This document shows, in pieces, positions 29,401 to 62,466 of a stretch of 64,000 bases of DNA. The DNA is taken from positions 9,078 to 73,077 of the forward strand of contig WAIB01000010.1 in the NCBI GenBank assembly GCA_009873655.1, read 5' to 3'. This DNA comes from Nitrospinota bacterium. Its GTDB lineage: Bacteria > Nitrospinota > Nitrospinia > Nitrospinales > VA-1. Both the position numbers and the translations under genes were made by a program. A model generated the notes under the pieces. It did no database searches, was not told the DNA's origin, and saw only the letters and a program-made list of their open reading frames with translations. Position 1 is the stretch's first letter. The number at the start of each line of letters is the position of its first letter.

Positions 29401-30487
29401 GAGTCATAAACTGGGAGGGAAAGTGGACGGACTCAAAGTCCTGTTGAAAGGACCTTTTGAACTTCCCCGGATATTAAAAAATATCAATATTGCCCTTAAC
29501 AATGAAATCAATCTGAAAATCGAAAAAGAAATGAAGGAAGAATTATTTGGAAACATAAATGCCAGGGGCGAACTATATACAGTACAAAAAATCAAACAAG
29601 TCGCCGGAGAAAGGATAGATCTTGAGGGACAACTTGGGTTCAATCATTTCAGTGCTGAGATCCCCTCGGTAGTTGAATTGAAAAATTTGACCGGCAACTT
29701 TCCATTCAGCAAATCCCTTTTACTTTCCTCCGACTCTACTTCCGGAAATGCTGTCTCACCCGCGCAAAAAAGTTTTTACAAACAGTTGCGGGAGTTTTCC
29801 CGTTACAAAAATAATATCAAGATGGACTCCCTGGAAATATCCGGTCAAAAAATTGAAAATATTGGCATGGATGCTGTGTTCAAGGACAACCGGCTCACTG
29901 CGGACAAATTTATTTTCGATGTTTTAGGCGGAACGGTGGGAGGACATTTTTCTTTCACACAAACATCAAGCGGACCTACCCTGAAATTTGTCACGGAATT
30001 TGCCAAAATCGATTCATCCCGGCTACTACCGCAAAACCAGGAAAAAAATATCGACTCGAAAATTGACGGCAATATGGAAATAGCTGTTCAGGTAGAAACG
30101 GCTGATGTCTCTTTGGATAAATTGTCTTTAAAAATAGCGATTACAAAAATCGGTGCGGAAACCTTAGATCGCCTTCTGCTTTATATTGATCCGGAAGAAA
30201 GCAAACCGGCCATTGTGGACACACGCGCAAAACTCAAAATCGCATCACCTCATCGTGTTTTGATCTCCCTGGGAAATGGAAATTTGAATATGGAAGCCTG
30301 GCTGAAGAGTGATTTGCTGGGAATCATTAAAGCGCCGGAATTGAAAAGAATTCCCGTGGCGGGACTCAAACAATTCGCGGCAATCAATGAGAAACTGCAC
30401 TCGCTTAAAGGAACATTAGAACTATTGAATATTGTAGCTGCGAAAAGAATTGTGTTTGAAAACGAAAAACCGGTTTTCAAAAACTGA
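26465..30487 (+). CDS. Large AsmA-like (repeating beta-groove, TamB/YdbH-like) envelope protein
   Basis: Single N-terminal TM helix, AsmA-type N-terminus (INQVLIDQP...GVWNFQPL), about 1300 aa of amphipathic beta-strands. Confidence 0.7.
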   Translation: MRKNKTNPASKEKEPESEAPVREAKKPSLAAKLLKGWVYFFFFLFVLIAGIGLVLEYYFPAEEIRVLAEKEGTRQLKLPLAIKKIKFSLLSGIRVDGLVLGPSAKPIASVQTMLLDYDLSQLIQGHLVINQVLIDQPQVIAISQKGVWNFQPLLDLGGSKNTPAPSTTGTPALPLTKIDLQQLKIQNIGATLVMDDQISAIIKGLSLEAKGKAGRDKLDLTLRVLMHPEKDANILFKNQKEKLYFESKTTTDLTFSARDLNKLNVSGRFGFNENQVKLGDALPSPDLEGSLSAEVQLQPERIHLSAFSLKLDDKNKIAFSTKIKNFSTAPAIETQIEKVSFRLSDILRWGAKWLPPISGNGTLEAENLGIQAELPGFKPENISLKGGSLSTRDLALDYSDFKIHIRGLDSSLKINEAILKKGKPAKVSAELKMQLVKGRAEEAEIRNWKQKLTLDAGGPELSKIKMGFNTDIGSLHYQHPLSKKVSLPFHAKGSLSGDLKRGDLKLQKISYQSGKFLKGNLSGEIKEEKSVQLQKGISLNISEALKILPREISSKIPKAEASGQTQVSFSVSGKLNSKFQPTHLHTNAEINLNQVSAKLDEPRIEVEGLNTSLTFPLDYEVEHGVKIPILEIETKLKHIQALNNWNLKNFSSNIKLNSESFYNLKSDFGTLPVKLNSQIKLGKLISTQPELSLADFKTDALLKGDLRPNDFRNSRLEGKVSIRNLNALKKIQVGKVDSQFSLQVHDKSLSRIHLSQKTKVTSINEDDLKLSLKEMSIESLSRKDLLNGNFDLDKFRLNAPGLVAFHLKGNAKNWGENFELENTVDGFELASILRNIPEDTKKSLGIKDLGGKIQLTFQTHGELPPANNKDLKPFERWKKLFASLGPNNLPPLEISSRFQLLNGKAGHLDKNIRGVNLETQLNFKNGSANLSGKTSGNLQGMEIFETLPLYPEFEFHYQLENLNTLILAKHQLNLKNRGLSHKLGGKVDGLKVLLKGPFELPRILKNINIALNNEINLKIEKEMKEELFGNINARGELYTVQKIKQVAGERIDLEGQLGFNHFSAEIPSVVELKNLTGNFPFSKSLLLSSDSTSGNAVSPAQKSFYKQLREFSRYKNNIKMDSLEISGQKIENIGMDAVFKDNRLTADKFIFDVLGGTVGGHFSFTQTSSGPTLKFVTEFAKIDSSRLLPQNQEKNIDSKIDGNMEIAVQVETADVSLDKLSLKIAITKIGAETLDRLLLYIDPEESKPAIVDTRAKLKIASPHRVLISLGNGNLNMEAWLKSDLLGIIKAPELKRIPVAGLKQFAAINEKLHSLKGTLELLNIVAAKRIVFENEKPVFKN

Positions 30488-30491
30488 TTGA

Positions 30492-31139
30492 TTACCGGCG
30501 GCCTCTGCCTCTGGGTCCCCCGCCACCCCGGCTGCCTCGGTTTTGTCCGCCTTGTTGCCGTTGCGGCCGTTGTCCCCGAAAATTTCCCTGACCCCCTTGC
30601 CGTTGCTGACGTTGTCCTTGTAAATTTTCTCTACGCCCCTGTCGTCGATCCTGCCTGGCATCACGGCGGTCCTGACGTTTTTCTTGAAATTGCTCTCTTC
30701 TGTCTTGCCGTCGTTCCTGTCTTGCATCCCGACGTTCCTGACGTTTTTCTTGAAACTGCTCTTTACGGTCCTGTCTTCGTTCCTGCCTGGCGTCGCGTCG
30801 ATCCTGACGTTTTTCTCGAAATTGCTTTCTTCTGTCTTGCCGGCGTTCCTGTCTTGCGTCCCGCCGTTCCTGACGTTTTTCTCGAAACTGCTCTCTTCTG
30901 TCTTGCCGGCGTTCCTGCCTTGCGTCCCGGCGTTCCTCCCGGTTTTGCCGAAATTCTTCTCTTCTTTTTTGAATTTCTTCCCTGCGCTGTTGTTGCTCTT
31001 CCTGCCGTTGCTGGCGTCTTCCTTCAAAAGCTTCCCTTCGAGTATCTTCCGTGCCCTCTATAGAATCCTGGCCCCAGGCCACACTCGCACTCAAACCTAA
31101 AAAAATAAATGTCCACACAGATAGCCATGTTTTCATCAC
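30492..31139 (-). CDS. Secreted R/E/Q-rich tandem-repeat protein with a Gly/Arg-rich tail
   Basis: Signal peptide MKTWLSVW...SVAWG-Q, RBS-like AGGGGTG, 5 x 22-aa repeats. The start is GTG 31139 or ATG 31136. Confidence 0.75.
   Translation of the reverse strand: MMKTWLSVWTFIFLGLSASVAWGQDSIEGTEDTRREAFEGRRQQRQEEQQQRREEIQKRREEFRQNREERRDARQERRQDRREQFREKRQERRDARQERRQDRRKQFREKRQDRRDARQERRQDRKEQFQEKRQERRDARQERRQDRREQFQEKRQDRRDARQDRRQGRRENLQGQRQQRQGGQGNFRGQRPQRQQGGQNRGSRGGGGPRGRGRR
30636..30965 (-). repeat. Intragenic tandem repeat, 5 x 66 nt
   Basis: Encodes five degenerate copies of RREQFREKRQERRDARQERRQD. Confidence 0.85.
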
Positions 31140-31164: not shown

Positions 31165-32049
31165 CTATTTTTGGGAAGACTTGTTTAGCTGGCTCATAAC
31201 CGTTTCGGTTTCTGCTTCTACTTCCTCGCGCTTTCTCCATTCCCATACCTTTAAATGGGCACCCATATAATAGGTATGGTCGAGCAGAGACTCCCCATCC
31301 ATAACCCCCCAGCGACCATCTTCAACTTCAGTCAAAGCTTCGTAAATGGGATTTTCTACGGAAGTGTAGAGCAACTCAAGATCCTGCGGGCTTACTTTTT
31401 GTCCCAACAAAATTTTAACTGACGAATCATCAATTTCAAAATCCGCCTGAATGGCTTTCAGCGCCTCCGATCTGGACTTGCCTTCTTTAATACCCTCCTG
31501 CCATTTTTCCTCAATGGTTTTATTTCTTTTCGCAAAAGGGTAATGGGTGTAACCCAGGCTTTTACCAACATGGAAATCCATATCCGGGAAATACAGATAC
31601 GACCAATCTTCGAAGTCCACTTCCGCTGCTTCCGACACCTCCATTTCTTTTGCTTTTTCAGGGGATTCGACCAGCATTCGGTTATAAAACTGAACGAATT
31701 CATTCATACTTTCAAAAACCACCGAGTGGTAAAAGGAGTTCATCCGGTACCAGTTATTGGAAGAGTTTTGGGCGTTCAACAATTTTCTAAGCATCTGAAC
31801 GAGTGTTTCCGCATCGGCAAACTGGCTGGAGATGGGGAAAAAATTCTGTAAAAACTGCGTAAGTTTCTCACTATCGCCGGAATCGATAGTTTCCTGCAGC
31901 TGGTTTTTTACATATTCCAAGGAGTGCTTGACCAAATTGACATGGTTGAGCTTGCGCTGATAATCCATATACTGCTTGATTTCGTCATTTTCACTCTCTT
32001 TGGGGTTTGCCGGTTTGTTTTGGGTAATATCTAGCGCAAAAGCAAGCAT
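31165..32049 (-). CDS. Hypothetical acidic protein (294 aa)
   Basis: Long ORF with protein-like composition, 25 nt upstream of the repeat-protein gene. No family recognised. Confidence 0.7.
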   Translation of the reverse strand: MLAFALDITQNKPANPKESENDEIKQYMDYQRKLNHVNLVKHSLEYVKNQLQETIDSGDSEKLTQFLQNFFPISSQFADAETLVQMLRKLLNAQNSSNNWYRMNSFYHSVVFESMNEFVQFYNRMLVESPEKAKEMEVSEAAEVDFEDWSYLYFPDMDFHVGKSLGYTHYPFAKRNKTIEEKWQEGIKEGKSRSEALKAIQADFEIDDSSVKILLGQKVSPQDLELLYTSVENPIYEALTEVEDGRWGVMDGESLLDHTYYMGAHLKVWEWRKREEVEAETETVMSQLNKSSQK

Positions 32050-49518: not shown

Positions 49519-50310
49519 TTATTTGAGGCCGGGGCCCTCTTTCCCCGGCCCGGTGGAACGCAGGGAATCAAGAAGGGATGCAAAATCGGAATCGCCGGTG
49601 AGTTTGAGAAATACCTCTTCCAGGTCTCCGTGTTCCTGTTTTGCCTGCGAACGCAATTGATCCACCGTACCCATGGCTACGATTCTCCCTTTTTGGATGA
49701 TGCCCACCCGGTGACACATATTTTCAGCCACACCCAGTGAATGGGTAGACAAAAAAATGGTGGTTCCTCCTGCGCACAAATCCTGAAACAACTGTTTCAC
49801 CTGCCGGGCCCCCTTCGGGTCCAGCCCCACCAGAGGCTCATCAACCACCAATACGGTCGGGTTATGAATCAATGCTCCGGAGATGATCAACTTTTGCTTC
49901 ATTCCATGTGAATAACCCTCAATCAGTTCATCAGCGAAACCATCCAAATCGAAAAAGTTCAGAAACTTTTCCGCCCGGTCATGAGCCACATTTATTTCCA
50001 TGGAATAAAGCCCGGCTACGAACTCCAAATATTCCCAGCCTGTCAACTTATCGTAGAGGAAAGGTCGGTCGGGTATATAGCCGATTATTTTTTTTACTTC
50101 GAGAGGGTTTTTGAACAGGTCCATGCCATCAATATGAATGGAACCGGATGTCGGCTTCAGTAAACCGACCAATAATTTTATGGTAGTGGTTTTCCCCGCT
50201 CCATTTGGCCCCAGGAAACCAAACAGTTCTCCCCTTGGAATTTCAAGATCCAACCCGTCCACCGCGGTAACGGAATCGTATTTTTTGGTCAACCCCTTGA
50301 TGGAAATCAT
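49519..50310 (-). CDS. ABC-2 type exporter ATP-binding protein
   Basis: Walker A GPNGAGKTT, signature YSHGMKQK, Walker B LVVDEP, H-loop STH. Confidence 0.93.
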   Translation of the reverse strand: MISIKGLTKKYDSVTAVDGLDLEIPRGELFGFLGPNGAGKTTTIKLLVGLLKPTSGSIHIDGMDLFKNPLEVKKIIGYIPDRPFLYDKLTGWEYLEFVAGLYSMEINVAHDRAEKFLNFFDLDGFADELIEGYSHGMKQKLIISGALIHNPTVLVVDEPLVGLDPKGARQVKQLFQDLCAGGTTIFLSTHSLGVAENMCHRVGIIQKGRIVAMGTVDQLRSQAKQEHGDLEEVFLKLTGDSDFASLLDSLRSTGPGKEGPGLK

Positions 50311-50328
50311 GAGGTAAAATTTTGGCGG

Positions 50329-50601
50329 TCAGGAACGAATTTCAAAGGATTTAAAATTTTGCAATGAGATCGGACTGAGGTCCAGCGACGTGACATTTGC
50401 CGCAGGGGTTCCTTTGCGGCACCAGGAAATAAAAATTTCGAGTTGAGATTTTTCCCCTTCCGCATGAATTTCTACCGTTCCTTCGGGTCTGTTCTTAACC
50501 CAGCCCAGAATACCAAGTTCATCGGCTCTTTCTTTAGTTCCAGCACGGAACCAAACCCCTTGAACCCGACCATGAACAAGGATGTGGATGGCCTCTATCA
50601 T
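50329..50601 (-). CDS. acyP: Acylphosphatase
   Basis: Motifs VHGRVQGVWFR, GWVKN..GTVE, FEIR. Confidence 0.93.
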   Translation of the reverse strand: MIEAIHILVHGRVQGVWFRAGTKERADELGILGWVKNRPEGTVEIHAEGEKSQLEIFISWCRKGTPAANVTSLDLSPISLQNFKSFEIRS

Positions 50602-50617
50602 TGCAGTTTATGGATCT

Positions 50618-50857
50618 TCAACTCTTTTTCCTGAAAGCGTCGTCAAACAAATGTTGAACTTCACGATAGGTCTTAAATTTATTCCCATCTGAAATTTTTT
50701 CACCGAATTTTCCCAGGTCGCGCATGATGCGCTGAAACTCCTGGGTCTGACCTTTGAAATTATCAATCAACGGACGAAAATACTGTTGTTCGTCTTCGTC
50801 CAGACGATCACAAATAATTCGTAGTCGGGCTTTTAATGGTTCAAAATCTTTTTCCAT
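50618..50857 (-). CDS. Small helical hypothetical protein
   Basis: 79-aa ORF filling the gap between co-oriented genes. Confidence 0.6.
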   Translation of the reverse strand: MEKDFEPLKARLRIICDRLDEDEQQYFRPLIDNFKGQTQEFQRIMRDLGKFGEKISDGNKFKTYREVQHLFDDAFRKKS

Positions 50858-50908
50858 TTTTTAATCACAAGATCGAATAAATAAGAAGGGGAATCCAGTA
50901 GTCGGGAA

Positions 50909-51241
50909 TCACTGACCTTTTTTCTTGCGCTCTATCATAATCTTCTTTAAACGCAGGGCAGCAGGGTTATCTTCAGGAAGAGCCAGGTATTTGTCGCGGG
51001 TTAAAATTGCTACCTCAACATCTTCTGTGGCAACCACCGAGGCCGTACGAGCATCATTGGAGATCATGGCCATTTCGCCAAAAAGATCATTCTCTTTCAG
51101 GTTCGCCAGAACTTTTTTGTTGCCATTGGCATCTGTTACAAACACTTCAACCTTTCCTTTTTTAATGAGAAAGGCACTGGTTCCGTGAGTGCCCTGGCGG
51201 ACAATGGTCTTGCCCTTTCTGTACTCTTTGATAACAAACAT
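50909..51241 (-). CDS. Stand-alone cyclic nucleotide-binding domain protein
   Basis: G..IVRQG, AFLIKKGKVEV, phosphate-binding cassette FGEMAMI...RTASVVA. Confidence 0.88.
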   Translation of the reverse strand: MFVIKEYRKGKTIVRQGTHGTSAFLIKKGKVEVFVTDANGNKKVLANLKENDLFGEMAMISNDARTASVVATEDVEVAILTRDKYLALPEDNPAALRLKKIMIERKKKGQ

Positions 51242-51397
51242 GGCCTTTTATCAACCTAGTTAGCTCTCAACAGTAACGCTACCAATATAAAAAAATGGGG
51301 GCCCAAATTCAATCCCAATCAAGGAAGATAAAAAAACTCAAATATTTATTGGAAAATTTTCTGATTTTTCTTTGGCCCACGTTTTCCAGCGATCCCC

Positions 51398-51886
51398 TCA
51401 TTTTTGCCCGCCAAAACCCGGGTAACTCAGGAAATAACGTTTCAATTGTCGTTGAGTTGAACGTATTTTTCGATGATTTCTCTTTTGGGTGTACAAATGC
51501 TGCGCCATTTGCATATGGTGGATAGCTTTTTCACCCTCCTTCAAATGATCGTAAGCAATGCTTAAATTATAATGGATCAATGCGGATTTTGGGTTCAGGC
51601 TTAAAGCCTCCTTGTATGCCTGCACCTCTTCTTTATGTTTGCCTAATGTCAAATAAGCCAGGCCCAACTCAAAATAAGATTGGAAATCCATTGGGTCCTG
51701 TTGGATGATGGCTTTCTGTCGGAATATTTCCTGCTGCGCTGTTTTTCGGTAAGTTTGGAAATCCGTTTCACCTCCATACACACTCGGACAGCCCCATGAC
51801 AAAAACAAACCAAGCAGGATAAAAAATACCCCCTTGTTTTCAGAGGTAATATCAAACAAAATATGTGGCTTGCAATCCTGGATCAT
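51398..51886 (-). CDS. TPR protein, probably exported
   Basis: Hydrophobic N-terminal segment; TPRs SYFELGLAY...YKEALSLNP and IHYNLSIAY. Confidence 0.75.
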   Translation of the reverse strand: MIQDCKPHILFDITSENKGVFFILLGLFLSWGCPSVYGGETDFQTYRKTAQQEIFRQKAIIQQDPMDFQSYFELGLAYLTLGKHKEEVQAYKEALSLNPKSALIHYNLSIAYDHLKEGEKAIHHMQMAQHLYTQKRNHRKIRSTQRQLKRYFLSYPGFGGQK

Positions 51887-51920
51887 CTAATGAATGTAAC
51901 ATTTTTCTATTGAGGCCAGA

Positions 51921-52904
51921 ATGAAATATAGAAAATTTGGCAAAACAGACAGACAAATATCAGAAATCGGATTGGGTACCTGGCAATTAGGAGCTGACTG
52001 GGGAAATGTCGATGATTCCACCGCTGAAAAAGTTCTGGCAACTGCAATTGATGCGGGAGTCAATTTTTTTGATACTGCCGACTGCTACGGTGAAGGTTTG
52101 TCCGAAACCCGGCTTGGGAAATTCTTGAATTCAATCTCCCGGGAAGTATTCATCGCTACAAAGCTTGGCCGGTTTCCAAAACCCGGTGGATCTGATAATT
52201 TTTCAATACAACAGTTTCGCCTGCATACGGAAAACTCGCTCAAACGCCTTGGCATTGAATGTCTCGACCTCACCCAGGTACACTGCCCGCCCACAGAGTT
52301 GATCAAGCAGGGAGAAATGTTCCACTGGTTACGTACTTTAAAAAAGGAAGGGAAAATAAAGGAATTCGGAGTCAGTGTTGAGTCCATGGAAGAGGCGGAG
52401 ATCTGTCTCAAACAAGAGGGTCTCTGTTCCCTGCAGATCATTTTCAATGTGTTACGGCAAAAACCAATAGATACTCTTTTTGATTTGGCCTTGAAAAAAC
52501 AGGTGGCCCTGATCATCCGTCTGCCACTGGCATCCGGGCTTCTTTCCGGAAGTTTAAATACGACAAGCACCTTTGCTTTCGACGATCATCGCAACTTCAA
52601 TCGAAACGGTGAACATTTCAATGTCGGTGAAACCTTTTCCGGTCTTCCTTTCGAAAAAGGTGTTGAAATTATCAGTCGGCTGGAACCATTGATCCCGGAT
52701 GATTTATCCTTATCTCTAGCCGCCTTAAGATGGATTCTTGATTTTGAAGCGGTTTCCGTGATTATTCCCGGGTCCAAGTCCCCAAAACAAGTCCTGCAAA
52801 ATTGCCAGGCAAGCGACCTTAAGCCTCTTTCCGCAAATTTTCATGAAACATTGAAGCAATTTTACAAACAGGATGTTGCCCCGCACATTCGAGGAAAGTA
52901 TTAA
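51921..52904 (+). CDS. Aldo/keto reductase
   Basis: Motifs SEIGLGTW, FFDTADCYG, IATK, SLKRL...DL.Q.H, PLASGLL, IPG. Confidence 0.92.
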   Translation: MKYRKFGKTDRQISEIGLGTWQLGADWGNVDDSTAEKVLATAIDAGVNFFDTADCYGEGLSETRLGKFLNSISREVFIATKLGRFPKPGGSDNFSIQQFRLHTENSLKRLGIECLDLTQVHCPPTELIKQGEMFHWLRTLKKEGKIKEFGVSVESMEEAEICLKQEGLCSLQIIFNVLRQKPIDTLFDLALKKQVALIIRLPLASGLLSGSLNTTSTFAFDDHRNFNRNGEHFNVGETFSGLPFEKGVEIISRLEPLIPDDLSLSLAALRWILDFEAVSVIIPGSKSPKQVLQNCQASDLKPLSANFHETLKQFYKQDVAPHIRGKY

Positions 52905-53599
52905 TTCACAGGCTTAATTTTCTCGAATAAGATATTGTTCTCCTTATGAATATGAAGGTGTGTATCCTTTTCAAGAAATTTCAACTCCTCGTACAATAGC
53001 CGAAAAGACTGGCACCCCTCTTCGGGAACTTTAAATCCGGCTGTTATTTCCCTTATATTTTTCAGCAAATCGCCAGCTTGATCATGTTCCTTCAACATGA
53101 CCCGAATGGGTCCGGAAACGGCTTTCATATTTTGGCCCAGCTCTTCTGATTCAAGTTTTCTTATTAGAGGAAATAAAACCCGCTCTTCTTTCAATAAGTG
53201 CGGCTCAAGTTCTTCCCGCAACTCTGCAAACTTTACTTCTAAAACGATTAGCTCCGGGAAACGATCCCCATGCGCGGATAAAACTTTTGTGAGCAATTCC
53301 GCAATTCGAGGCAAGGCTTTTTTAAGATATTCATGATGCTCCGATTCAATCTGCAATGTCAGTTGTCCCGGGGTAACAGAATTTAAATCTCCCTCCTGAC
53401 CTGTTTTAGGATTCTCTAACCCCCTTAACCGGTTTAACACATCTTCAGGTTCAAGACCGGTATCCAGACAGGCGTTTTCAAGAGAGGTCTCTCCCCCACA
53501 GCAAAAATCGATGGATAAATCTTCAAAAGTTTGGGCGCATAGAATATTGTCTTCTACAAACTCCCCCACCTTGGTTTGGGTACTCCAGTTGGAATTCAT
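52901..53599 (-). CDS. ric: Iron-sulfur cluster repair di-iron protein (RIC/YtfE/ScdA)
   Basis: IDFCCGG and hemerythrin-like ligands HH.YL, HLLKEE, EHD, HLHIHKEN. Confidence 0.93.
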   Translation of the reverse strand: MNSNWSTQTKVGEFVEDNILCAQTFEDLSIDFCCGGETSLENACLDTGLEPEDVLNRLRGLENPKTGQEGDLNSVTPGQLTLQIESEHHEYLKKALPRIAELLTKVLSAHGDRFPELIVLEVKFAELREELEPHLLKEERVLFPLIRKLESEELGQNMKAVSGPIRVMLKEHDQAGDLLKNIREITAGFKVPEEGCQSFRLLYEELKFLEKDTHLHIHKENNILFEKIKPVN

Positions 53600-53647
53600 A
53601 ATTGTCTCCCTTTTTCACTTTTTTTCGAAAAAATCCGTCTCGCCAAA

Positions 53648-53677
53648 AAAAAGATAAAAATATCCTTTTATCTTTTT
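53648..53677. promoter_or_regulatory. Perfect 12-6-12 inverted repeat in the divergent ric / nfu promoter region (candidate repressor operator)
   Basis: AAAAAGATAAAA-ATATCC-TTTTATCTTTTT, 48 nt upstream of the ric start. Confidence 0.55.
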
Positions 53678-53822
53678 ATTTGAATATAAACCTGTTAAAA
53701 TAAAATTTCAAGGCAAAATCCTATTTTGCTTGAAAAAAACTATTTAAAAACTTTTTGAACCCCCGTTGGCGAGAACCCATCTTAAAAGATGAATGGAGTA
53801 AAACTTTTTCAATGAGAATGGG

Positions 53823-54410
53823 ATGTCTGAAAATTATAAAGTTAAAGAAATAGAACTCACACCTAACCCGAGGGCGGTGAAATTCATATTAGACCAGGTC
53901 GTTTTGGAATCAGGCTCAAAAACAATTGAGGCAGGGGCCTATTTGGAAACCGATGTCTTTGCGACCCATATTTTTGATTTAGGCATCGTCGACCTGGTTT
54001 ATTGCCGGGAAAATTTTATCTCCATTACCCTCCAATCTCCTGACCTGTGGGTTGTTTTTAAGGATAAAATAAAAAACATCATTGAAGCAGACTTAAAAAA
54101 ATACGAAGAAGGAGATGATGAGGTCTCCTCCTCAATCCTCGATGATTTTGATAAGGAAAAATATCCAGAACTCTCAGATGACGAAAAGGTAATCATTGTT
54201 GAAGCGATTCTCGATGAATCTGTACGGCCCGCGTTGGCCAATGACGGGGGAGGTCTTGAAGTCATTGAAGTCGAAGGACCCATTGTTCGAATTCGGTATC
54301 AAGGTGCCTGTGGTGGTTGCCCCAGTGCAAGCGGCGGCACTCTTCGGGTTATAGAAAATCACTTGAAGTCCCAACTCGATCCTGAAATCAAGGTACACAC
54401 ATATACTTAA
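53823..54410 (+). CDS. NifU/Nfu family Fe-S carrier (Nfu N-terminal + NifU C-terminal domains)
   Basis: TPNP.A.KF N-domain; VRPALANDGG and YQGACGGCPS. Confidence 0.9.
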   Translation: MSENYKVKEIELTPNPRAVKFILDQVVLESGSKTIEAGAYLETDVFATHIFDLGIVDLVYCRENFISITLQSPDLWVVFKDKIKNIIEADLKKYEEGDDEVSSSILDDFDKEKYPELSDDEKVIIVEAILDESVRPALANDGGGLEVIEVEGPIVRIRYQGACGGCPSASGGTLRVIENHLKSQLDPEIKVHTYT

Positions 54411-54630
54411 TTGATTTTTTTGAATTAACACATCCTCCCTCCAGCCCACCCGACAAGCCTGATTTACAGTTAAAATCCATCGCAATTTTGCAACAAATTG
54501 ACCCTCCTATCCCTCAAATAATCAAATATTTATAAAAACTTCCTTTGTTTTTATTGACCTTTCGACATATCAAAGGGTTGATGGAGCTAAATATTTAAGT
54601 AATAATTAGTTATCCAACGAAGAAAAAATA

Positions 54631-55239
54631 ATGAACACAAAAATTTTCTTTCAAATCTTAACTTTGGTTGCGCTTTGTCTTTTTGGGTCCAATTTCAATT
54701 CAGCCTGGGCCATTGAGAACAAGAGCCGGGTGGTTTCGGGGTATTGGCAATCGGATACGACAAGCTATACTTTCATTGCCGTGTCTCACTCTTCCTTGTC
54801 CGGTCTCGCATCCCAAATCGGGCTGGTCGTGAATGCAATACAAAGTGACCAGACCGCTTTTGGAACCGCCGTAACCTTTACAATTTCAGCGGGCTCGACC
54901 CAACGGTTGTTTGTTGCTCGGACGAATCATTCAACTATAAATTCGACAAATATTCCAACCGCATTGTTTATAATAGGAACCACAAATTTTAAACATGGCC
55001 ATATAAGAGTCGATCCTGTTGCCAGCAACCCTGAATTTGGTGTCGACCCAGATCTCCCTCCAAGTGCAAGCACTCTTGAGAACAGGGGTTTTAGAGATAT
55101 CACGATGTTGAATTACTGGGGGGCCGTTACTATAGAAGCAAATACAACCGGGTTTGCGATGGAGTTCATTGGCGACATGCATGACAGCGCTGCAACATCC
55201 TCTATGGACGACTCGGTTCCCGTAAGCGGAGTAAATTAA
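54631..55239 (+). CDS. Secreted hypothetical protein, paralog 1 of an unrecognised beta-rich domain family
   Basis: Signal peptide (...NSAWA); shares RV.S.Y.Q...SYTFI.V.H.SL and FAMEFIGD.HDS with the next two genes. Confidence 0.8.
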   Translation: MNTKIFFQILTLVALCLFGSNFNSAWAIENKSRVVSGYWQSDTTSYTFIAVSHSSLSGLASQIGLVVNAIQSDQTAFGTAVTFTISAGSTQRLFVARTNHSTINSTNIPTALFIIGTTNFKHGHIRVDPVASNPEFGVDPDLPPSASTLENRGFRDITMLNYWGAVTIEANTTGFAMEFIGDMHDSAATSSMDDSVPVSGVN

Positions 55240-55242
55240 ACT
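55141..55242 (+). repeat. Left arm of a perfect 102-bp inverted repeat
   Basis: Checked block by block; identical to the reverse complement of 55929-56030. Confidence 0.95.
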
Positions 55243-55899
55243 ATGAATGCTAAAACCGAAAAATTAAATTGGCTTGATTTTTTAAGGTCTTTGTTTATTA
55301 TTTTTTTACTCCCGCAAATAGCCCACTCACAGGTCATTGTTCCTGAGACCGTCTCAAAATCCAGAGTCGTTATATCACCCTATGCGCAAGCCGTTCCCAA
55401 CGACAGTTATACTTTTATATCCGTAAGCCATCCCTCTCTGGATTCTGCACAAACCCAGATCGGAGTGGGGCTGGAGGTGATCGGTATGACGACCGTCCCA
55501 GATAATGCAGCGGGGCGAGCAGCCATCTTCACCATTGACGCTGGAACCACGCATCGAATTTTTGTAGCTAATCTTTCCCATTCAACAGTCAATAGTTCCA
55601 TTGAAAGCTCAACCACCCATTTGATTTTAACAGCAGACTCCGCTCAGTTCGGAAATGTAAGAGCCGTCGGCATTCATGAAGACCCAGCCAATTCTGTTGT
55701 AGTCAACAATGTCAGAAAATTCAACAACCTTTCTCAATTGGATTTCTGGGGGGTTGTTTTCATAGAATCAAGTGGCACTGGTTTCTCCATGGAGTTTATT
55801 GGCGATGCCCACGATTCAACTATTGGCCGTAATTACGACTCAAGCATTATGGATGGTACAACAGGAGTATCTACGGGAATAACCCGCGGAATAAACTAA
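55243..55899 (+). CDS. Secreted hypothetical protein, paralog 2 of the same domain family
   Basis: Signal peptide (...QIAHS-Q); RVVISPYAQ...SYTFISVSHPSL...FWGVVFIE..GTGFSMEFIGDAHDS. Confidence 0.8.
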   Translation: MNAKTEKLNWLDFLRSLFIIFLLPQIAHSQVIVPETVSKSRVVISPYAQAVPNDSYTFISVSHPSLDSAQTQIGVGLEVIGMTTVPDNAAGRAAIFTIDAGTTHRIFVANLSHSTVNSSIESSTTHLILTADSAQFGNVRAVGIHEDPANSVVVNNVRKFNNLSQLDFWGVVFIESSGTGFSMEFIGDAHDSTIGRNYDSSIMDGTTGVSTGITRGIN

Positions 55900-55928
55900 G
55901 GACCGAAACCGGATTATTATTTGTCGGC

Positions 55929-56030
55929 AGTTTAATTTACTCCGCTTACGGGAACCGAGTCGTCCATAGAGGATGTTGCAGCGCTGTCATGCATGTCGCC
56001 AATGAACTCCATCGCAAACCCGGTTGTATT
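55929..56030 (-). repeat. Right arm of the perfect 102-bp inverted repeat
   Basis: 3' end of the protease gene plus 3 nt; identical to 55141-55242 in inverted orientation. Confidence 0.95.
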
Positions 56031-57914
56031 AGATTCAATAACAATGGCCCCCCAGTAATTCAGCATCGTGACATCCCTAAACCCTTGAACACTTACTTCT
56101 GGGTTGCTGGCCACGGGACTGATATCCACAAAACCATGACGGAAACCTGAAATTCCTGCAATCAATTCGACATCTATCAAATTGCTGCTGTTTATGGAGG
56201 GGTGATCGGATCTAACAATAAAAATTCTTCTTGTAACTCCCCTGTCGATGGTAAAGGTCCTTGAGGAACCGAATAAAGTCCCGTTTTTTCTTACCGCTTG
56301 AACCAAAACCCCTACCTGGGAAGCCACGCCAGAAAGGGAAGGATGGGTAACAGCAATGAATGAATAGGAAGAATCATCAGACTGCCAATAAGGAGACATG
56401 ACCCGGTATGCACTGTTTTTAGCAATCGAAGCAACCTGTTGATTTCCAATTGATTCTCTAAAGTTTGATACTGTAAGGGCCGTATTTTGAAAAGTTTTTC
56501 GATTATCTGCAGCAAGCGCATTGCCTTCAGCGACACCCGTTACTGCACCTCCAAATAACACATTCGGATTCGAAAAGTTTTGAATGCGGGTATTGCTCCC
56601 TGTCCCCATGATAGTTTTGAAGTTGTTAGCGGAATCCACGTAACCATGATTGAAATCGAAAGGAAGTCCATCCGTATCATCATTGGCGCGATCATGGCGC
56701 GCGGCCATATTGTGTCCAATTTCATGCCCGAATGTAAAGTTTCCCGTCGCACAATTGGTCTGAGTTACAGAATATCCAAAAGCCTCAAAAGAAGAAGATA
56801 CTTCTGTCATTAAATACGCAATACCACACAAACTATTATCTCCCTTTACCAACACAACGACTAGATCCGCTCCGTGAGTGTTTCTCAAATCGTGAAGATC
56901 GGGAATAGAACCATTCTGAGCAGAAGACAAAGTCCCGCTAAAGCTGAAATTGTCCTCCGAAAAAACGATTTCCTGTCTGGCGACTACATTGACAACCAGC
57001 GTTAAACCGCTATTTGAAAAGGCAGCATTGGTTTCCGATTCTGCTAGGTCAATGAGGCTCTCCATGGCGCTTGCTCCCCCCTCTGCTTCTCGGGCAGCTG
57101 CGGTGTAGACGACCAGCAGCTCAATCACGCTGCCATCGTCAGATCCTGTAGTAGAAGATGAGTCCGTACCTCCTGAAGCACTGAAAGCATCAGGTTTGTC
57201 TACTTTATCTGACATGAACAAATCGCCCATTGAATCATAACCAAACCCCAAATCAGAAGAGCTGGAGGTCGGATATTTATTCTTGGCTAAAAACGAAGAC
57301 ATAGTTTTGTCCCCATTTTCAGACATTTTATCCTCATCAGGCAATGAAGAGGGATTGGTTTTCATGCTGGGACCAACTGGTTCCCCGTCGGGAGGAAACC
57401 TGGAAGGGTCTATCTCGTATACAAAATGTAATCCATCCGCAACATGACGTATCTGATAGGTTAAGCCTGGTTTTGATATGTTTCCATAAACCGCTTCGCC
57501 TTTTACGACTAGGACTACTTGACTCATTGGAACGTTTTCCAACTTTCCATACCAGGAATAACTCCCAGATCGGTTTCTTTCTATCTTATAAACGAGGACT
57601 GAGAACTCCGTTGCCGGGAATAAATTTAAAATCAACGGAATTTCATGGTCTGGTTCCGCAATAAAATTTTCATCGGGTACAGGCAAAAATCTCATGTCCA
57701 GCTTCACGAGCCGGGAACGTAAAACTGTCGGAGCTTTTTTGGGTTTAAAATCTTGAGTATTTGGGGTTGAAAGGAAGAGATAAGGTGGAAGGGGGTCTTG
57801 AGTTTCTTGCTCGGCCTCGGCCGCATCAGCAACAAGGGTTTTCATTAAATTCAGACAGAAGCATGAAAAAATAATTGCTGCCAAAAACAGGCTTAAACGG
57901 TTCTGTTTTAACAA
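55932..57914 (-). CDS. Secreted M12B/reprolysin-like zinc metalloprotease with a C-terminal copy of the shared domain
   Basis: Signal peptide, pro-region, S/T/G linker, I.LLVVYT, GADLV, CGIAY, HEIGHNMAARH (HExxHxxxxxH), Met-turn TIMG, FSNP; TTG start. Confidence 0.85.
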   Translation of the reverse strand: MLKQNRLSLFLAAIIFSCFCLNLMKTLVADAAEAEQETQDPLPPYLFLSTPNTQDFKPKKAPTVLRSRLVKLDMRFLPVPDENFIAEPDHEIPLILNLFPATEFSVLVYKIERNRSGSYSWYGKLENVPMSQVVLVVKGEAVYGNISKPGLTYQIRHVADGLHFVYEIDPSRFPPDGEPVGPSMKTNPSSLPDEDKMSENGDKTMSSFLAKNKYPTSSSSDLGFGYDSMGDLFMSDKVDKPDAFSASGGTDSSSTTGSDDGSVIELLVVYTAAAREAEGGASAMESLIDLAESETNAAFSNSGLTLVVNVVARQEIVFSEDNFSFSGTLSSAQNGSIPDLHDLRNTHGADLVVVLVKGDNSLCGIAYLMTEVSSSFEAFGYSVTQTNCATGNFTFGHEIGHNMAARHDRANDDTDGLPFDFNHGYVDSANNFKTIMGTGSNTRIQNFSNPNVLFGGAVTGVAEGNALAADNRKTFQNTALTVSNFRESIGNQQVASIAKNSAYRVMSPYWQSDDSSYSFIAVTHPSLSGVASQVGVLVQAVRKNGTLFGSSRTFTIDRGVTRRIFIVRSDHPSINSSNLIDVELIAGISGFRHGFVDISPVASNPEVSVQGFRDVTMLNYWGAIVIESNTTGFAMEFIGDMHDSAATSSMDDSVPVSGVN

Positions 57915-58129
57915 GTTTGAATTCCCTTTAAGAAAGGACGAAATTTTGCCGGGATACCATTGATTTTATTCTAAAGACCACAAATCCATATCGGCAAAAG
58001 CCCCAATTTCTAAAGGATTTAGGAGCATTAACTTGAAAAAACCAACGAATGCTTTTAGATTAAAGCGTTGATCAGGAAGGCTTGCGGAAAATCATTTTCC
58101 AAAAATATTCTCATCTGTATTTTTTAAAT

Positions 58130-58480
58130 ATGGAAAAAAGAAACACCACATTTTTTACAATCGTGCATTTTACCGGTGACTCCTCTCTCACCTATGAGGA
58201 AATAAAGAAGAGTCACCTCGATAGCGGTGAAAGTGAAATCGGCTTCCATTACATCATCGATTCGCAGGGAAAGATTTTAATGGGCAGGCATGCATCCAAA
58301 ATAGGAGCTCATTATCCAGAGTTCGACGAAACCAGCCTGGGAATATGCGTAATTGGCGCGAGACATGATTTACAAGAACATCAATCCGTTGCCTTGACTT
58401 TGTTGCTGGAAAACCTGAAAAACGATTTCCCGGAAATTCAAAAAGTTAAATATATTTATAAAGAAAAGGAAAACGAATAA
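58130..58480 (+). CDS. T7-lysozyme/Amidase_2-like protein, apparently missing catalytic residues
   Basis: IVHFT, IGFHYIIDSQG.I..GR....GAH, SLGICVIG. ATG 58130 is preferred over TTG 58082. Confidence 0.75.
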   Translation: MEKRNTTFFTIVHFTGDSSLTYEEIKKSHLDSGESEIGFHYIIDSQGKILMGRHASKIGAHYPEFDETSLGICVIGARHDLQEHQSVALTLLLENLKNDFPEIQKVKYIYKEKENE

Positions 58481-58759
58481 TGCTTTCCAAATGACCAGAT
58501 TTTATTTGTCAGCATAATTCAAGCGCCCAAACTCACAATTTTATAATCGCGCAGATCCATTAAAAAAGTTGCAATAAACCGCGGGGTGAGGGCTTGGGCT
58601 TAAAGCTCATGGTGGTCTTTCCGCGAGATTTCAGTCTATCTATTTTGAAACAAAAAATCAGGGCAAAACTTTTCCTGAAAAGCAAAAGTTGACTTTACTT
58701 ATTTTATAGAAAATTAATGCCGCCTTTTTTTTACAGACAAAACCTGACATAATGCTCCC

Positions 58760-60181
58760 ATGAAAAAAATTATTATCATTGGTGGCGGTATCGCCGGGTT
58801 GGCTGCTGCGTACCGTTTTCAACGGGAATTATCCGAAGGTGCCGATATGGAATGCATCCTTCTGGAGGGAAACGACCGGTTTGGCGGTAAAATTTCCACG
58901 GAGAAATCAGACGGGTTCGTCATCGAACGCGGCCCCGACTCCTTCATCTCGCAGAAACCGGCAGCCATCCAATTGTGCAAACAACTTGGACTGGATGACC
59001 GGCTTACGGGGACAAACCCGGGAGCACCCAGTACTTTTGTTTATACGGGGGGAAAGCTGGTAACAATGCCGGATGGGCTGAGCCTGATGATTCCCACCAA
59101 GTTTTTGCCCTTCGCCCTGACACCCTTATTCAGTATGCCGGGAAAAATCCGTATGGCCTTTGACCTGTTTATCCCAGGGAAAGAGGACGATTCGGATGAA
59201 AGCCTGGCGTCATTCGTTCGCCGCAGAATGGGAGAAGAAGCCCTAAACAAAATGGCGGAACCCATGCTTGCCGGAATTTATGCCAGTGACCCGGAAAAAA
59301 TGAGTATCAGAAGCACCTTCCCCATGTTTGTGGAAACAGAACGTAAGCACCGTTCCCTCATACTGGGAATGCTGGCCAGAAAGAAAGCCATGTTGATGAA
59401 TGCCGGAAAACGTCCTCCCACTTCCTATTCCCTGTTTATGACTTTAAAAGAAGGGCTGGGTGAAATGGTGGATGCCATTATAAAAAAATCACCCGACGTT
59501 CAGTTTAAATCTGGAACAAAAGTTTCCTCACTGGAGAAAAGACCCGATGGCTGGCATGTGAAACTGGAAAACGGATGGGAACGCCAGGCAGATGCTGTAA
59601 TTATTGCCACCCCGGGAACCATCACTGCAAAAATCCTTCAGCCCATTGCTCCTGACTCTGCTGAAATATTGAAGGGCATAAACTATGTCTCTACCGCAAC
59701 CGTGACTCTGGGTTATAAAAAGGAAGGCTTCTCCCACCCTCTGGATGGATTCGGATTCGTGGTGCCTAAAAAAGAAGGCCGCAGCATTCTGGCCTGTACC
59801 TGGACCTCCTCAAAATTTCCCCACCGCGCACCTGAAGGCTATGTCATGCTGCGCTGTTATCTGGGAGGGGCACTTCAGGAAGAAATAGCCGAAAAGGATG
59901 AGGAAACATTGGAAACTCTGGTTAGAAAAGATCTGCAGGAAATCATGGGAATAAAAGAAACTCCCGTGTTCTGCAAAGTATTTCGAAACCTTAAATCAAA
60001 TGTTCAATATCATGTGAGTCATTCCGAGAAAATTGATTCTGTGATGGAAGATTTAAAAAATTTCCCCGGACTTTTCCTTGCAGGAAGTGCTTATCGCGGA
60101 ATAGGTATTCCGGACTGCATTCAAAATGGAAATCAGGCCGCCGAGGCCACTCTGGAATTTTTAAATGGTAAATCCCCTTAA
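58760..60181 (+). CDS. hemG: FAD-dependent proto/coproporphyrinogen oxidase (HemY-type, often labelled HemG)
   Basis: Motifs IIGGGIAGL, ERGPDSF, EPMLAGIYA, GFGFVVP, CTWTSSKFP, GIGIPDCI. Confidence 0.92.
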   Translation: MKKIIIIGGGIAGLAAAYRFQRELSEGADMECILLEGNDRFGGKISTEKSDGFVIERGPDSFISQKPAAIQLCKQLGLDDRLTGTNPGAPSTFVYTGGKLVTMPDGLSLMIPTKFLPFALTPLFSMPGKIRMAFDLFIPGKEDDSDESLASFVRRRMGEEALNKMAEPMLAGIYASDPEKMSIRSTFPMFVETERKHRSLILGMLARKKAMLMNAGKRPPTSYSLFMTLKEGLGEMVDAIIKKSPDVQFKSGTKVSSLEKRPDGWHVKLENGWERQADAVIIATPGTITAKILQPIAPDSAEILKGINYVSTATVTLGYKKEGFSHPLDGFGFVVPKKEGRSILACTWTSSKFPHRAPEGYVMLRCYLGGALQEEIAEKDEETLETLVRKDLQEIMGIKETPVFCKVFRNLKSNVQYHVSHSEKIDSVMEDLKNFPGLFLAGSAYRGIGIPDCIQNGNQAAEATLEFLNGKSP

Positions 60182-60234
60182 CCGATTTGACATCTAATAG
60201 ATAAATCATTAAGTAACTTCAAAAGGAGCAAACT

Positions 60235-61425
60235 ATGAAATGGGTATCGGCCCTATCAAAACAAACGGATATCGATGCCGCTGTGCAAGAGGCCAGTGAA
60301 GAAATAATCCGGCAATTGGGAAACGACCAGGCGGATTTGACCGTAATATTCGTTGCTCCTCAGTATAGAGATTTTTATGACAAGGTACCCGACCTGGTAA
60401 ATCGATACCTCAAACCCGGCACGCTTTTTGGTTGTTCGGGCGGGGGGATTATTGGAAATGGGCAGGAAGCAGAACAACAGGCAGCCTTCAGCATCACTTG
60501 CGCTAAAATGCCCGGAGTTAAAATCCAGCCCATATATTCGGAAACCCGGGAGCTGCCGGATCAGGACACTTCGCCCTCCGTTTGGCGGGAATGGTTGAAT
60601 GTAAATATTGAAGACCAACCCCACTTTGTTTTTCTTGCTGACCCCTTCTCTTTCCGTGGAGATGAGTTTCTAGCGGGAGTCGATTTCGCATACCCCAATA
60701 GTAAAAAGGTAGGAGGACTCGCCAGTGGTGCGCAATCCATGGGAGGAAACGCTCTTTATCTGGGGGATAAGATCTACAACAAGGGTCTGATTGGCATTGC
60801 ATTGAGCGGTGACATAGAAATCGACACCATCGTAGCGCAGGGTTGCCGACCCATAGGGGAACCAATGAAAATCACCGATTGCCAGGATACATTGCTCAAA
60901 GAGCTCGACGGCAAACCTACATTGGAGGTTTTGCAGGAACTCAACGAAACTCTTTCTGACTCCGACAAAAAACTTTTACAGACTTCTCTCTTTCTGGGTA
61001 TAGAGATGGACCCGATGAAGGACGACCCGCAGCAAGGGGACTTCCTCATCCGCAACTTGATGGGAGTCGATCGGGAAAGTGGAGCTCTCGCCATCGGCGC
61101 ACTCCTGAGAACCGGGCAACTGGTGCAATTCCATCTTCGCGACAAAAAAATGTCTGCCGAAGATCTGGACATGATGCTCACACGCTACCGGTCGCAAGGA
61201 CAAGCTGAAAATGCCAGCGGAGCGTTATTGTTTTCCTGTCTTGGAAGGGGAAAATATCTTTACGGAGAAGAAAACCACGATACCAACATGTTCCGCAACA
61301 AACTGGGACAAATTCCGATAGGGGGATTTTTCTGCAATGGAGAAATAGGTCCGGTGGGGAACACCACATTCCTGCACGGCTACACCAGTTCTTTTGGAAT
61401 ATTCAGAAAAACCAGCCACACCTGA
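60235..61425 (+). CDS. FIST N/C domain protein (NosP-like small-ligand sensor)
   Basis: Motifs GCSGGGII, LADPF, GGLASG, VAQGCRPIG, LLFSCLGRG, GFFCNGEIGP...LHGYT. Confidence 0.88.
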   Translation: MKWVSALSKQTDIDAAVQEASEEIIRQLGNDQADLTVIFVAPQYRDFYDKVPDLVNRYLKPGTLFGCSGGGIIGNGQEAEQQAAFSITCAKMPGVKIQPIYSETRELPDQDTSPSVWREWLNVNIEDQPHFVFLADPFSFRGDEFLAGVDFAYPNSKKVGGLASGAQSMGGNALYLGDKIYNKGLIGIALSGDIEIDTIVAQGCRPIGEPMKITDCQDTLLKELDGKPTLEVLQELNETLSDSDKKLLQTSLFLGIEMDPMKDDPQQGDFLIRNLMGVDRESGALAIGALLRTGQLVQFHLRDKKMSAEDLDMMLTRYRSQGQAENASGALLFSCLGRGKYLYGEENHDTNMFRNKLGQIPIGGFFCNGEIGPVGNTTFLHGYTSSFGIFRKTSHT

Positions 61426-61441
61426 ATAGAAAGGAAAAATT

Positions 61442-61708
61442 ATGGCCGTTGAAGTAAGTGTGTCAACCACTCCCAATGAAAACGCAATGAAGTACACCCT
61501 CAATTGCAATTCCATCGAATCGGGACATAAGACTTATGCCAATGCCGAGGCTGCAGAAGACTCCCCCGTAGCCAAGGCGCTATTTGCAATAGATGGAGTG
61601 AGCCAGGTTTTTCTGATGGCCGATTTCATCTCCGTCACAAAAAAACCTGAAGCCAGTTGGAGCAATCTTGAAGCTTCCATCCTGGAAGCAATTAAATCTT
61701 CATATTGA
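61442..61708 (+). CDS. Stand-alone Nfu/NifU N-terminal domain protein
   Basis: TPNENAMKY, SP.AKALF.IDGV..VF...DFISVTK....W. Confidence 0.85.
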   Translation: MAVEVSVSTTPNENAMKYTLNCNSIESGHKTYANAEAAEDSPVAKALFAIDGVSQVFLMADFISVTKKPEASWSNLEASILEAIKSSY

Positions 61709-61713
61709 CCTGC

Positions 61714-62466
61714 ATGAAAGTCACCATACTGGGTTCAGGTACGGCCGTGCCCTCTTTGCAGCGAAATTCTTCGGGAGTTTTGATTCAGGAAAACGGAGTA
61801 AACTCGCTGGTGGACTTTGGTTACGGAAACCTGAAACAACTCCTCAACCTGGGAATCACCTACCACGATATTAACCGCATATTTTTTACACACAACCATC
61901 CCGACCATATGTGCGATCTCATTCCATTTTTATTTGGGTCGCGCTACCAGTTGGATGCCCGCAAAAAAGATCTCCAGATTGTAGCGGGACCCGGATTCCA
62001 GGAATTCTTCGACAAGCTCATGACGGCCTTTAAACACTGGTTGAAACCCACCGAGTACCAACTGAATATTTTTGAATTGGATGAAGGAGTTTACGAATTT
62101 GAAACTCTGAAAGTCCGGGCGGAAAAAGTGAAACATATTGCCATGAGCCGGGGCTACCGATTTACCAATGGCAAAGGAAAGTCCGTTGCCCTTTCAGGTG
62201 ACACGGATTATTGTCAAGGCATGATCGAATTAGGCAAACAGGCCGATTTGATGATTTTGGAATGCGCCTGGCCTGATGAAGAAAAAACCGAAGGCCATCT
62301 GGGACCGACCCTGGCTGGCAGGCTTGCTTTCGAGGCAGACTGCAAAAAACTCTGCCTCACCCATTTTTACCCCCCCTGTGATTTGGAAGACATTCGAAAA
62401 ACCGTGCAGGAAACTTATAAAGGAGAACTGGTACTGGCCCATGACCTGATGCAGTTTGAGATCTGA
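61714..62466 (+). CDS. Metallo-beta-lactamase fold hydrolase, RNase Z/AtsA-like
   Basis: Motifs ILGSG, DFG, THNHPDH, H, SGDT, EC, GH, LTHFY; ATG 61714. Confidence 0.85.
   Translation: MKVTILGSGTAVPSLQRNSSGVLIQENGVNSLVDFGYGNLKQLLNLGITYHDINRIFFTHNHPDHMCDLIPFLFGSRYQLDARKKDLQIVAGPGFQEFFDKLMTAFKHWLKPTEYQLNIFELDEGVYEFETLKVRAEKVKHIAMSRGYRFTNGKGKSVALSGDTDYCQGMIELGKQADLMILECAWPDEEKTEGHLGPTLAGRLAFEADCKKLCLTHFYPPCDLEDIRKTVQETYKGELVLAHDLMQFEI

Follow-up and report, generated by a model that had tools for sequence, protein, structure and literature searches.

Paralogous gene ends placed head-on in a Nitrospinota genome: a putative repeat-mediated inversion polymorphism with concerted evolution of the repeat arms

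When two related genes converge on a third and their 3′ ends are identical to the letter, has the gene between them been turned around, does it still turn, and is the turning programmed? This question is raised by a locus in a 64,000-nucleotide (nt) stretch of DNA from a Nitrospinota bacterium (contig WAIB01000010.1 of assembly GCA_009873655.1), hereafter the window, which lies on contig C1 of a draft genome (G000) comprising 59 contigs and 2.53 Mb at 92.2% completeness. A perfect inverted repeat of 102 nt is formed there by the 3′ ends of two convergent genes, one encoding a small secreted protein (P1) and the other an M12B-type protease, and it encloses a gene for a second small secreted protein (P2). 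The explanation that we consider probable is sporadic homologous inversion mediated by the repeat, combined with gene conversion between head-on paralogous gene ends. By sequence comparison, the locus appears to be a repeat-mediated inversion polymorphism with concerted evolution of its arms, and the repeat is most likely both a product and a substrate of ordinary homologous recombination.

The geometry of the repeat is simple. Positions 55141-55242 are the exact reverse complement of 55929-56030, in a window free of ambiguous letters (N), and each arm consists of 32 sense codons, a stop codon and three further nucleotides, ACT. An earlier, sequence-only reading of the window had described this perfect repeat, had assigned its arms to the 3′ ends of P1 and the convergent M12B protease gene plus ACT, and had placed the left boundary right before the ATG of the enclosed gene with a GGAG inside the arm; the repeat was confirmed letter for letter, the coordinates of the open reading frames (ORFs) agree, and the final base of the left arm does directly precede the P2 start codon. 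Between the arms lie 686 nt, made up of P2 and 29 nt. The same reading had the identity begin abruptly out of clearly diverged sequence, which holds only in part: there is a step to 100%, but the adjoining 54 nt are already 81% identical, and identity is down to 50% only further upstream. When these flanks are included, the inverted repeat (55087-55242 and 55929-56084) extends over 156 nt at 94% identity, and it is by far the longest inverted pair in positions 50000-62000, where the runner-up has 30 nt at 80%. The features of the locus are collected in Table 1.

Table 1. Coordinates of the genes, repeat arms and associated features of the locus, numbered by position in the window.
Feature	Coordinates	Strand	Description
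P1	54631..55239	+	202 amino acids (aa); secreted stand-alone copy of the Nitrospinota-type C-terminal beta-sandwich domain; donor of the converted tail
Left arm, outer imperfect part	55087..55140		81% (44/54) identical to 56031-56084; identical to its partner in some other populations
Left arm, perfect	55141..55242		Last 32 P1 codons, stop, ACT; GGAG at 55228-55231, 11 nt ahead of the P2 start
P2	55243..55899	+	218 aa; second secreted paralog, inside the putatively invertible segment; starts 3 nt after the P1 stop
Inter-arm segment	55243..55928		P2 and a 29-nt 3′ spacer; inverted in metagenome contig L038 relative to G000
Hairpin	55880..55945	- (protease-sense)	At the convergent homologous 3′ ends of P2 and protease; 14-bp stem, no T-run after it
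Right arm, perfect	55929..56030		AGT, stop and last 32 protease codons, read on the - strand; about double depth in runs X1, X4 and X11
Protease	55932..57914	-	660 aa; secreted M12B/reprolysin-like metallopeptidase; last ~170 residues P1-like, tail overwritten by P1 sequence
Right arm, outer imperfect part	56031..56084		Partner of 55087-55140

How did the arms come to be identical? In a codon alignment of P1 with the C-terminal domain of the protease, the body of the two sequences matches at 200 of 396 positions (50%), with 49 of 132 third codon positions in agreement, while the 18 codons before the arm match at 44 of 54 positions (81%) and the arm itself at 96 of 96. In eight related loci where P1 and the protease gene are co-directional, the final 150 nt show 72-79% identity and exact runs reach at most 11-19 nt; at 79% identity, 102 consecutive matches would have a probability of approximately 4e-11 (our own arithmetic). 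Protein conservation was ruled out as the cause of the identity, given that synonymous sites and the three nucleotides after the stop codon are identical as well and that unconverted loci stay at 72-79%. An inverted duplication arising from staggered breaks was also ruled out, as the identity stops, on its outer side, within sequence that is itself homologous and in frame, and the point at which it stops differs between samples.

The sequence of the shared tail shows the direction of exchange. It reads ..DSVPVSGVN and resembles P1 orthologs, whereas unconverted proteases (those of other genomes and of a metagenome locus, L043) end in ..AGVSGVN, ..VGVSGVN or ..AGVSGVD, followed by TTG, TTT or CTT and not by ACT. 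The arrangement of P1 stop codon, 2-3 nt and P2 ATG is found in G000, in 9/9 same-genus genomes examined and in L043. Because the shared tail and the three nucleotides after its stop codon are P1-type, P1 was the donor, and the arm identity is a gene-conversion tract for which the protease tail was the recipient. In nucleotides, the protease tail of G000 shares 98% identity with the P1 of the same genome, 82-84% with the tails of a second metagenome locus, L038, and 70-74% with protease orthologs. Recent gene conversion had been the fallback of the sequence-only reading, and the P1-type protease tail bears it out. The longest exact run shared by P1 and the protease gene is 102 nt (G000), 41 nt (L038) and 35 nt (L043) at loci where the two genes meet head-on, compared to 11-19 nt at the co-directional loci (8/8); homogenization is confined to the head-on layout.

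Independent samples indicate that the identity is real and that its extent varies. Among 24 sequencing runs listed, 19 (from seven studies) contain the stretch, all as contigs only and none recorded as RNA; the contig layout over the locus was followed in X1, X4, X19, and X11 (four studies), and the arm piece was readable in X1, X4, and X11 (three studies). In each of the latter the arm forms one contig piece, at a depth of 14.3 (X1), 15 (X4) or 12 (X11), with flanks at about 4.4-11. Because the arm thus has roughly twice the depth of its flanks in three runs of three studies, the repeat is not an assembly artefact, an alternative that the sequence-only reading had kept and that the single double-depth piece contradicts. 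No other letters occur on the arm piece in X1 and X4, and the double-depth piece of X11 carries a variant, 55980 A>C, as if it were present in both arms. The inner arm end is fixed in all samples and the outer end differs, the arm piece measuring 116 nt in X1 (to 56044) and 143 nt in X4 and X11 (to 56071), compared to 102 nt in the window. Because the outer end varies in this way (102, 116, 143 nt), exchange between the arms looks recurrent. The P1 of X1, X4, and X11 also carries 55108 T>C, which is the protease-type letter. Contig pieces end 30 nt inside each arm (55213/14 and 55957/58) in X1, X4, X19, and X11, which we take to reflect assembly from 31-letter words at a repeat, a presumed word length that fits the 30-nt overlaps. 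Positions 55974-56040 have no contig cover in X19, making this run uninformative about the arm. The contig layout of the four runs contains no joints between orientations; contigs that end at the arms cannot show any, so that the layout is uninformative on orientation.

A separate feature lies just outside the left arm. At 55126-55140 the P1 of the window has a 15-nt patch with six differences from the protease arm (AVTIEA vs. AIVIES). The patch is apparently absent in X1, X4, and X11, the P1 of relatives mostly reads AIVIE, and the patch has no match to the P1 paralog on contig C31 of G000.

Is the layout itself old or recent? Gene order was classified in metagenome and genome loci L025-L035 and L037-L081; 60 loci entered the classification, from which nine with an identical P2 and four with an incomplete P2 were dropped, leaving 47 distinct loci. 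The flanks are conserved, with a NifU-like gene (53823-54410) on one side and an amidase gene (58082-58480) followed by a protoporphyrinogen-oxidase-like gene on the other. Between them, 26/47 loci have P1 and P2 in tandem and no protease (order A; some of these have 1.2-2.9 kb of unassigned sequence before the amidase), 5/47 have protease, P1 and P2 co-directional on the other strand (order B), 2/47 have the G000 order P1>P2> <protease (order C), 1/47 has P1> <P2 <protease (order D), and 7/47 have P1>P2>protease> (order E), with the order undetermined in 6/47. The head-on layout, which produces an inverted repeat, is therefore present at three of the 47 loci, with arms that are 80% alike in L043 and 93% alike in L038. 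None of the nine same-genus genome loci examined has it; five same-genus genomes contain no match at all to the protease part, and other members of the genus carry the three genes as a co-directional operon or do not have the protease. The inverted-repeat layout thus appears confined to a small lineage. L043, the second order C locus, combines the G000 gene order with arms 80% alike and an unconverted, protease-type tail, and it seems to show the state before conversion. No near-identical metagenome contigs were returned by our searches (from which the window's own-genome records may have been excluded), the best P2 identity being 83%.

Two further observations concern the neighborhood as a whole. 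The entire three-gene cluster, and not P2 alone, has been inverted or lost repeatedly among relatives between the same flanks. The interval from the amidase gene to the protoporphyrinogen-oxidase-like gene spans ~3.2 kb in protease-less loci (L025 8157-11391, L031 6578-9792, L035 8291-11521) and ~280 nt in the window.

The order D locus is L038, a short-read metagenome contig of 2415 nt without N, and it supplies the evidence for inversion. Its gene order is protease>P2 <P1 <NifU-like, and its protease stop codon is followed by ACT and the ATG of P2, reproducing the P1-P2 junction of G000. By blastn, window positions 55087-56085 are collinear with L038 708-1698 (80.6% over 1002 nt), while the P1 and protease flanks match on the opposite strand; L038 and G000 would thus differ by a clean inversion with breakpoints inside the arms. 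In a maximum-likelihood tree of P2 the two are sisters (ultrafast bootstrap 100, Shimodaira-Hasegawa-like approximate likelihood-ratio test [SH-aLRT] 95), and the P1-type protease tail is common to both. Over 162 nt, 93% of positions agree between the two L038 arms, whose exact runs measure 41 and 28 nt; eight differences fall within the last 110 nt, among them 833, 862, and 864 near the inner ends. The arms should therefore be phasable by reads of ~100 nt and by read pairs. The sequence-only reading had foreseen that a flip would invert 55243-55928, leave both flanking proteins unchanged and set P2 behind the protease gene with the same stop-ACT-ATG junction, and this is the order and junction found in L038. 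The comparison with relatives that it proposed gave a mixed outcome: the cassette is flipped in the sister L038, but the layout exists at only three of the 47 loci and arm identity is no more than 80% in L043 and 93% in L038.

These comparisons suggest a mechanism. By sequence comparison, the protease C-terminal domain received at its 3′ end a copy of the P1 3′ end, including the stop codon and the 3-nt spacer, giving arms of 102 nt in G000 and up to 143 nt in other populations. A crossover within the arms may then have inverted the P2 cassette, as indicated by one contig (protease>P2 <P1 in L038 vs. P1>P2 <protease in G000). In G000 itself the cassette would flip sporadically without a dedicated recombinase. 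After a flip, both flanking proteins would be unchanged and P2 would keep the same 102 nt upstream; what would change is the upstream gene that shares a transcript and translational coupling with P2. The same recombination intermediates can give rise to either conversion or crossover, so that where conversion recurs, occasional inversion is expected. Sporadic flipping would also be expected because the G000 arms exceed the minimal length for RecA-dependent recombination: the excerpted text of one report puts the minimal efficient processing segment at 23-27 bp for the RecBC route and 44-90 bp for the RecF route, both shorter than the 102-nt exact arms (PMC12074656). Unlike a fixed recognition site, the arms are stretches of paralogs in which identity rises in steps and the end of the tract differs between samples.

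None of the 48 window ORFs of at least 110 aa encodes a recombinase, transposase or integrase; for recombinases, the sequence-only reading had noted this already. The draft (92.2% complete) has no hit to the serine recombinase family PF00239; tyrosine recombinases (PF00589) are encoded by four genes, on contigs C13, C12, C44, and C5 and none on C1, and recA is present on contig C55 (2.1e-142). Regarding transcription signals, a terminator scan found no terminator-like site between P2 and the protease gene, and promoter-like sites number 11 compared to 7.2 +/- 3.0 expected. The hairpin at 55880-55945 has a predicted energy of -22.2 kcal/mol on the - strand (z -3.48, with 1/200 shuffles as good) and of -15.3 kcal/mol on the + strand (z -1.88). 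A flipped cassette would put an equivalent hairpin between P1 and P2. Conceivably, a transcript reading through P1 and P2 would hold both arms, which could then pair over 102 nt.

Several considerations weigh against sporadic inversion with conversion, and they are best taken together with the rival explanations. The inversion rests on the single 2415-nt short-read contig L038, where a wrong assembly walk through the 41-nt exact run would give the same picture; the orientation of G000 itself depends on reads spanning a 102-nt repeat, and the evidence from the sequencing runs consists of assembled contigs, which end at the arms. The ends of contig pieces can also reflect strain variation, and the 116-nt figure (X1, where two P1 variants are present) is less secure than the 143-nt figure. 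Finally, exchange in 55100-55140 may have gone in either direction, the AVTIEA of the window's own P1 being odd among relatives. A first rival is a static conversion tract, in which P2 has never been inverted and the L038 order is an assembly error through its repeat. In its favor, L038 is short, its arms share the 41-nt run, all other loci read (G000, 9/9 same-genus genomes, L043) have the P1 stop, 2-3 nt and P2 ATG junction, and the contig layouts are free of joints, uninformative as these are. However, the eight differences in the last 110 nt of the L038 arms are of a kind that ~100-nt reads and read pairs can phase, and recurrent conversion, as seen in the variable tract ends, makes some inversion likely; we therefore regard a purely static tract as unlikely, though it is the strongest of the competitors. 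A collapse of two differing G000 arms into one consensus is a far weaker candidate. A 59-contig draft invites the suspicion, since bubble-popping assemblers can merge near-identical repeats, but a single arm piece at about twice the flank depth in three runs, with no other letters in X1 and X4, contig pieces that end at the inner arm ends in all four runs, and the fact that collapse would itself need nearly identical arms make this very improbable.

The opposite possibility is that the locus is a programmed phase-variable switch, flipping reversibly within a population so that P2 is expressed with either P1 or the protease, with selection keeping the arms identical. In its favor, both states keep the three ORFs intact and give P2 the same upstream 102 nt, including GGAG and the stop-ACT-ATG junction; both occur in sister lineages; the arms are identical or longer in three independent runs, with the X11 variant 55980 A>C apparently on both; and recombinase-independent inversions at intragenic repeats are known from pneumococcal hsdS, going by an extract of the report (PMC6620402). 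Nevertheless, the window encodes no recombinase and the genome no serine recombinase, and the layout occurs at 3/47 loci, with arms unconverted in L043 and decayed to 93% in L038, so that identity is not maintained across the lineage. Other members of the genus have a co-directional operon or no protease, indicating that differential pairing of P2 is not a conserved need, and both orientations within one population are not on record, the sample data being contigs that end at the arms. The switch that the sequence-only reading had proposed, deciding which transcript co-expresses P2, is thus disfavored by the rarity of the layout and by the 80 and 93% arm identities, which argue for a lineage-specific accident of paralogy, and we rate it as doubtful, somewhat below the static tract. 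Slightly more of a long shot is the strongest form of the idea, a working recombinase-free switch by which P2, secreted, promoterless and coupled in translation, would alternate between two transcription units that converge. It would be paired with the stand-alone P1 in one state and with the equivalent domain at the protease C-terminus in the other, and concerted evolution would keep the arms identical, so that the flanking proteins and the P2 translation signals stay the same. If true, it would be the first phase-variation system in marine nitrite oxidizers, and a design in which only operon membership varies. Sporadic inversion with conversion remains the explanation that we prefer.

P1 and P2 are paralogous to each other and to the final ~170 residues of the protease; P1 is 58% identical to the protease domain and 40% identical to P2, and all three translations start with hydrophobic, signal-like N-termini; that of P1 ends in AWA, and no Pfam family passes for P1, whose orthologs sit upstream of P2 in relatives. 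The protease matches Reprolysin_5 (2.3e-16, residues 263-448, 61 bits with a cut-off of 27), and also Reprolysin_3 (49.2 bits, cut-off 22.4) and Reprolysin_4 (46.3 bits, cut-off 22). The zinc motif of this protease family is HExxHxxGxxH; the corresponding region here reads HEIGHNMAARH, with A in place of G. Against the Mep72 biofilm-associated metzincin model NF052434 the protease scores 95.8 bits, below the equivalog cut-off of 645. A paralogous protease, 55-57% identical, is encoded at another locus in three same-genus genomes (G013:C107 L032, G016:C182 L034, G004:C2 L036), and its C-terminal domain ends in ..SGPSAP or ..SGPGAP and not in ..VSGVN, resembling in this the P1 paralog P1′ on C31 (..TGPAAP).

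The shared domain resists closer classification. The P1/P2 domain has no match in Pfam or NCBIfam, a PDB sequence search gave nothing below E 0.49, and an Atlas search returned only unnamed Nitrospinota clusters. An AlphaFold model built with 27 relatives is a beta-sandwich of moderate confidence (predicted local distance difference test [pLDDT] 65.8) whose last 21 residues are disordered; Foldseek found no match to it at E <= 0.001, and the best VIA-align matches, 1nc7 (Z 8.2, root-mean-square deviation 2.5, 93 aligned) and the carbohydrate-binding module 5aot (Z 8.0), lie in a range that the tool describes as common. The model therefore allows only the label of a generic beta-sandwich. A complex prediction for P1 and P2 (score 0.01, mark 0.32) lends support to neither binding nor its absence.

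P1, P2, and the protease tail (54631-55239, 55243-55899, and 55932-56440) belong to a small domain family that is apparently restricted to Nitrospinota. A profile search of 1.84 billion representative proteins found 194 members (clusters); among the matches listed, 46/47 proteins of at least 450 aa have the domain no more than 15 residues from the C-terminus. The domain stands at the extreme C-terminus of proteins of up to ~3500 aa in the profile-search table, with longer open frames elsewhere, and 5/5 giant ORFs checked in a genome from a different family within the order end with it, on an SG[VIL]N motif. It also occurs as tandem stand-alone P1-P2 pairs, of which G000 has two, the second (P1′-P2′) being on contig C31 (L004 5220-5849, 5904-6605) without a protease. 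The domain may be a module for sorting or anchoring to which small partner proteins are dedicated. Elsewhere in the window, the ORFs at 26465-30484 (1340 aa), 30495-31139, 31168-32049, and 15623-16378 (215-294 aa) have no Pfam match at E <= 1e-5.

If the preferred explanation holds, the locus would be a clean natural case of head-on paralogous domains creating their own inversion substrate: conversion builds the arms, and the arms let a whole gene move to another operon while every protein stays as it was. The uncultured Nitrospina-like populations of the sea, represented mostly by short-read bins, would then carry small structural polymorphisms that short-read assemblies cannot phase, and spanning reads would be needed before the gene order given by these bins near such repeats is relied upon. 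Should flipping turn out to be frequent, the locus would offer a simple model of recombinase-independent phase variation. It also points to an uncharacterized, lineage-restricted C-terminal domain family common to small secreted proteins, a protease and giant proteins.

How does the locus compare to known systems? Among the matches listed by a literature search for Nitrospina with inverted repeats and inversion, none concerned Nitrospina. At the sap (S-layer) locus of Campylobacter fetus, paralogs in opposite orientation share conserved ends, and RecA-dependent inversion between these ends switches the homolog that is expressed; the arms of that system are 5′ regions and the promoter lies in the inverted segment, whereas in G000 the arms are 3′ ends and the segment is a promoterless gene. 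The nearest described behavior is that of pneumococcal SpnIII (ivr) hsdS, where inverted repeats also lie within genes and a flip joins a fixed upstream gene to different coding DNA downstream; according to the portion of the report consulted, hsdS still inverts in strains that lack the locus recombinase CreX or XerD, XerS, and SPD_0921 (PMC6620402). In that system the protein itself changes, in its target-recognition domains; the locus includes a recombinase gene; mutants in homologous recombination still invert; and frequencies were measured (PMC6620402). In the G000 locus, conversely, proteins would be unchanged, a whole promoterless gene would move between convergent genes, and no recombinase is encoded nearby. 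Invertons of the PhaseFinder/PhaVa type likewise have a pair of inverted repeats bracketing a segment that overlaps a gene, and their detection relies on reads mapping to both orientations; the excerpt available describes them as preprogrammed and driven by invertases, with short repeats (11 nt in one example) whose inversion recodes or truncates a gene (PMC10028968). The arms at the present locus instead consist of paralogous coding sequence, are 102-143 nt long and vary at their outer end, as is typical of homologous exchange. Bacterial genomes commonly differ by inversions with inverted repeats at their boundaries, according to the consulted part of one report (PMC5372343). As in such non-allelic homologous inversions, sister lineages here appear to differ by an inversion with breakpoints in an inverted homologous pair; the usual cases involve insertion sequence elements, ribosomal RNA operons and large segments, while in G000 the segment is 686 nt with one gene and the arms are the 3′ ends of paralogs. 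On sequence comparison, the locus thus appears to have the features of a repeat-mediated homologous inversion and to lack the conservation expected of a dedicated invertase switch. It would represent a known process, in a neat and well-supported example from an uncultured group of ecological importance, and there is a modest chance that it is an operon-swapping switch of a new kind.

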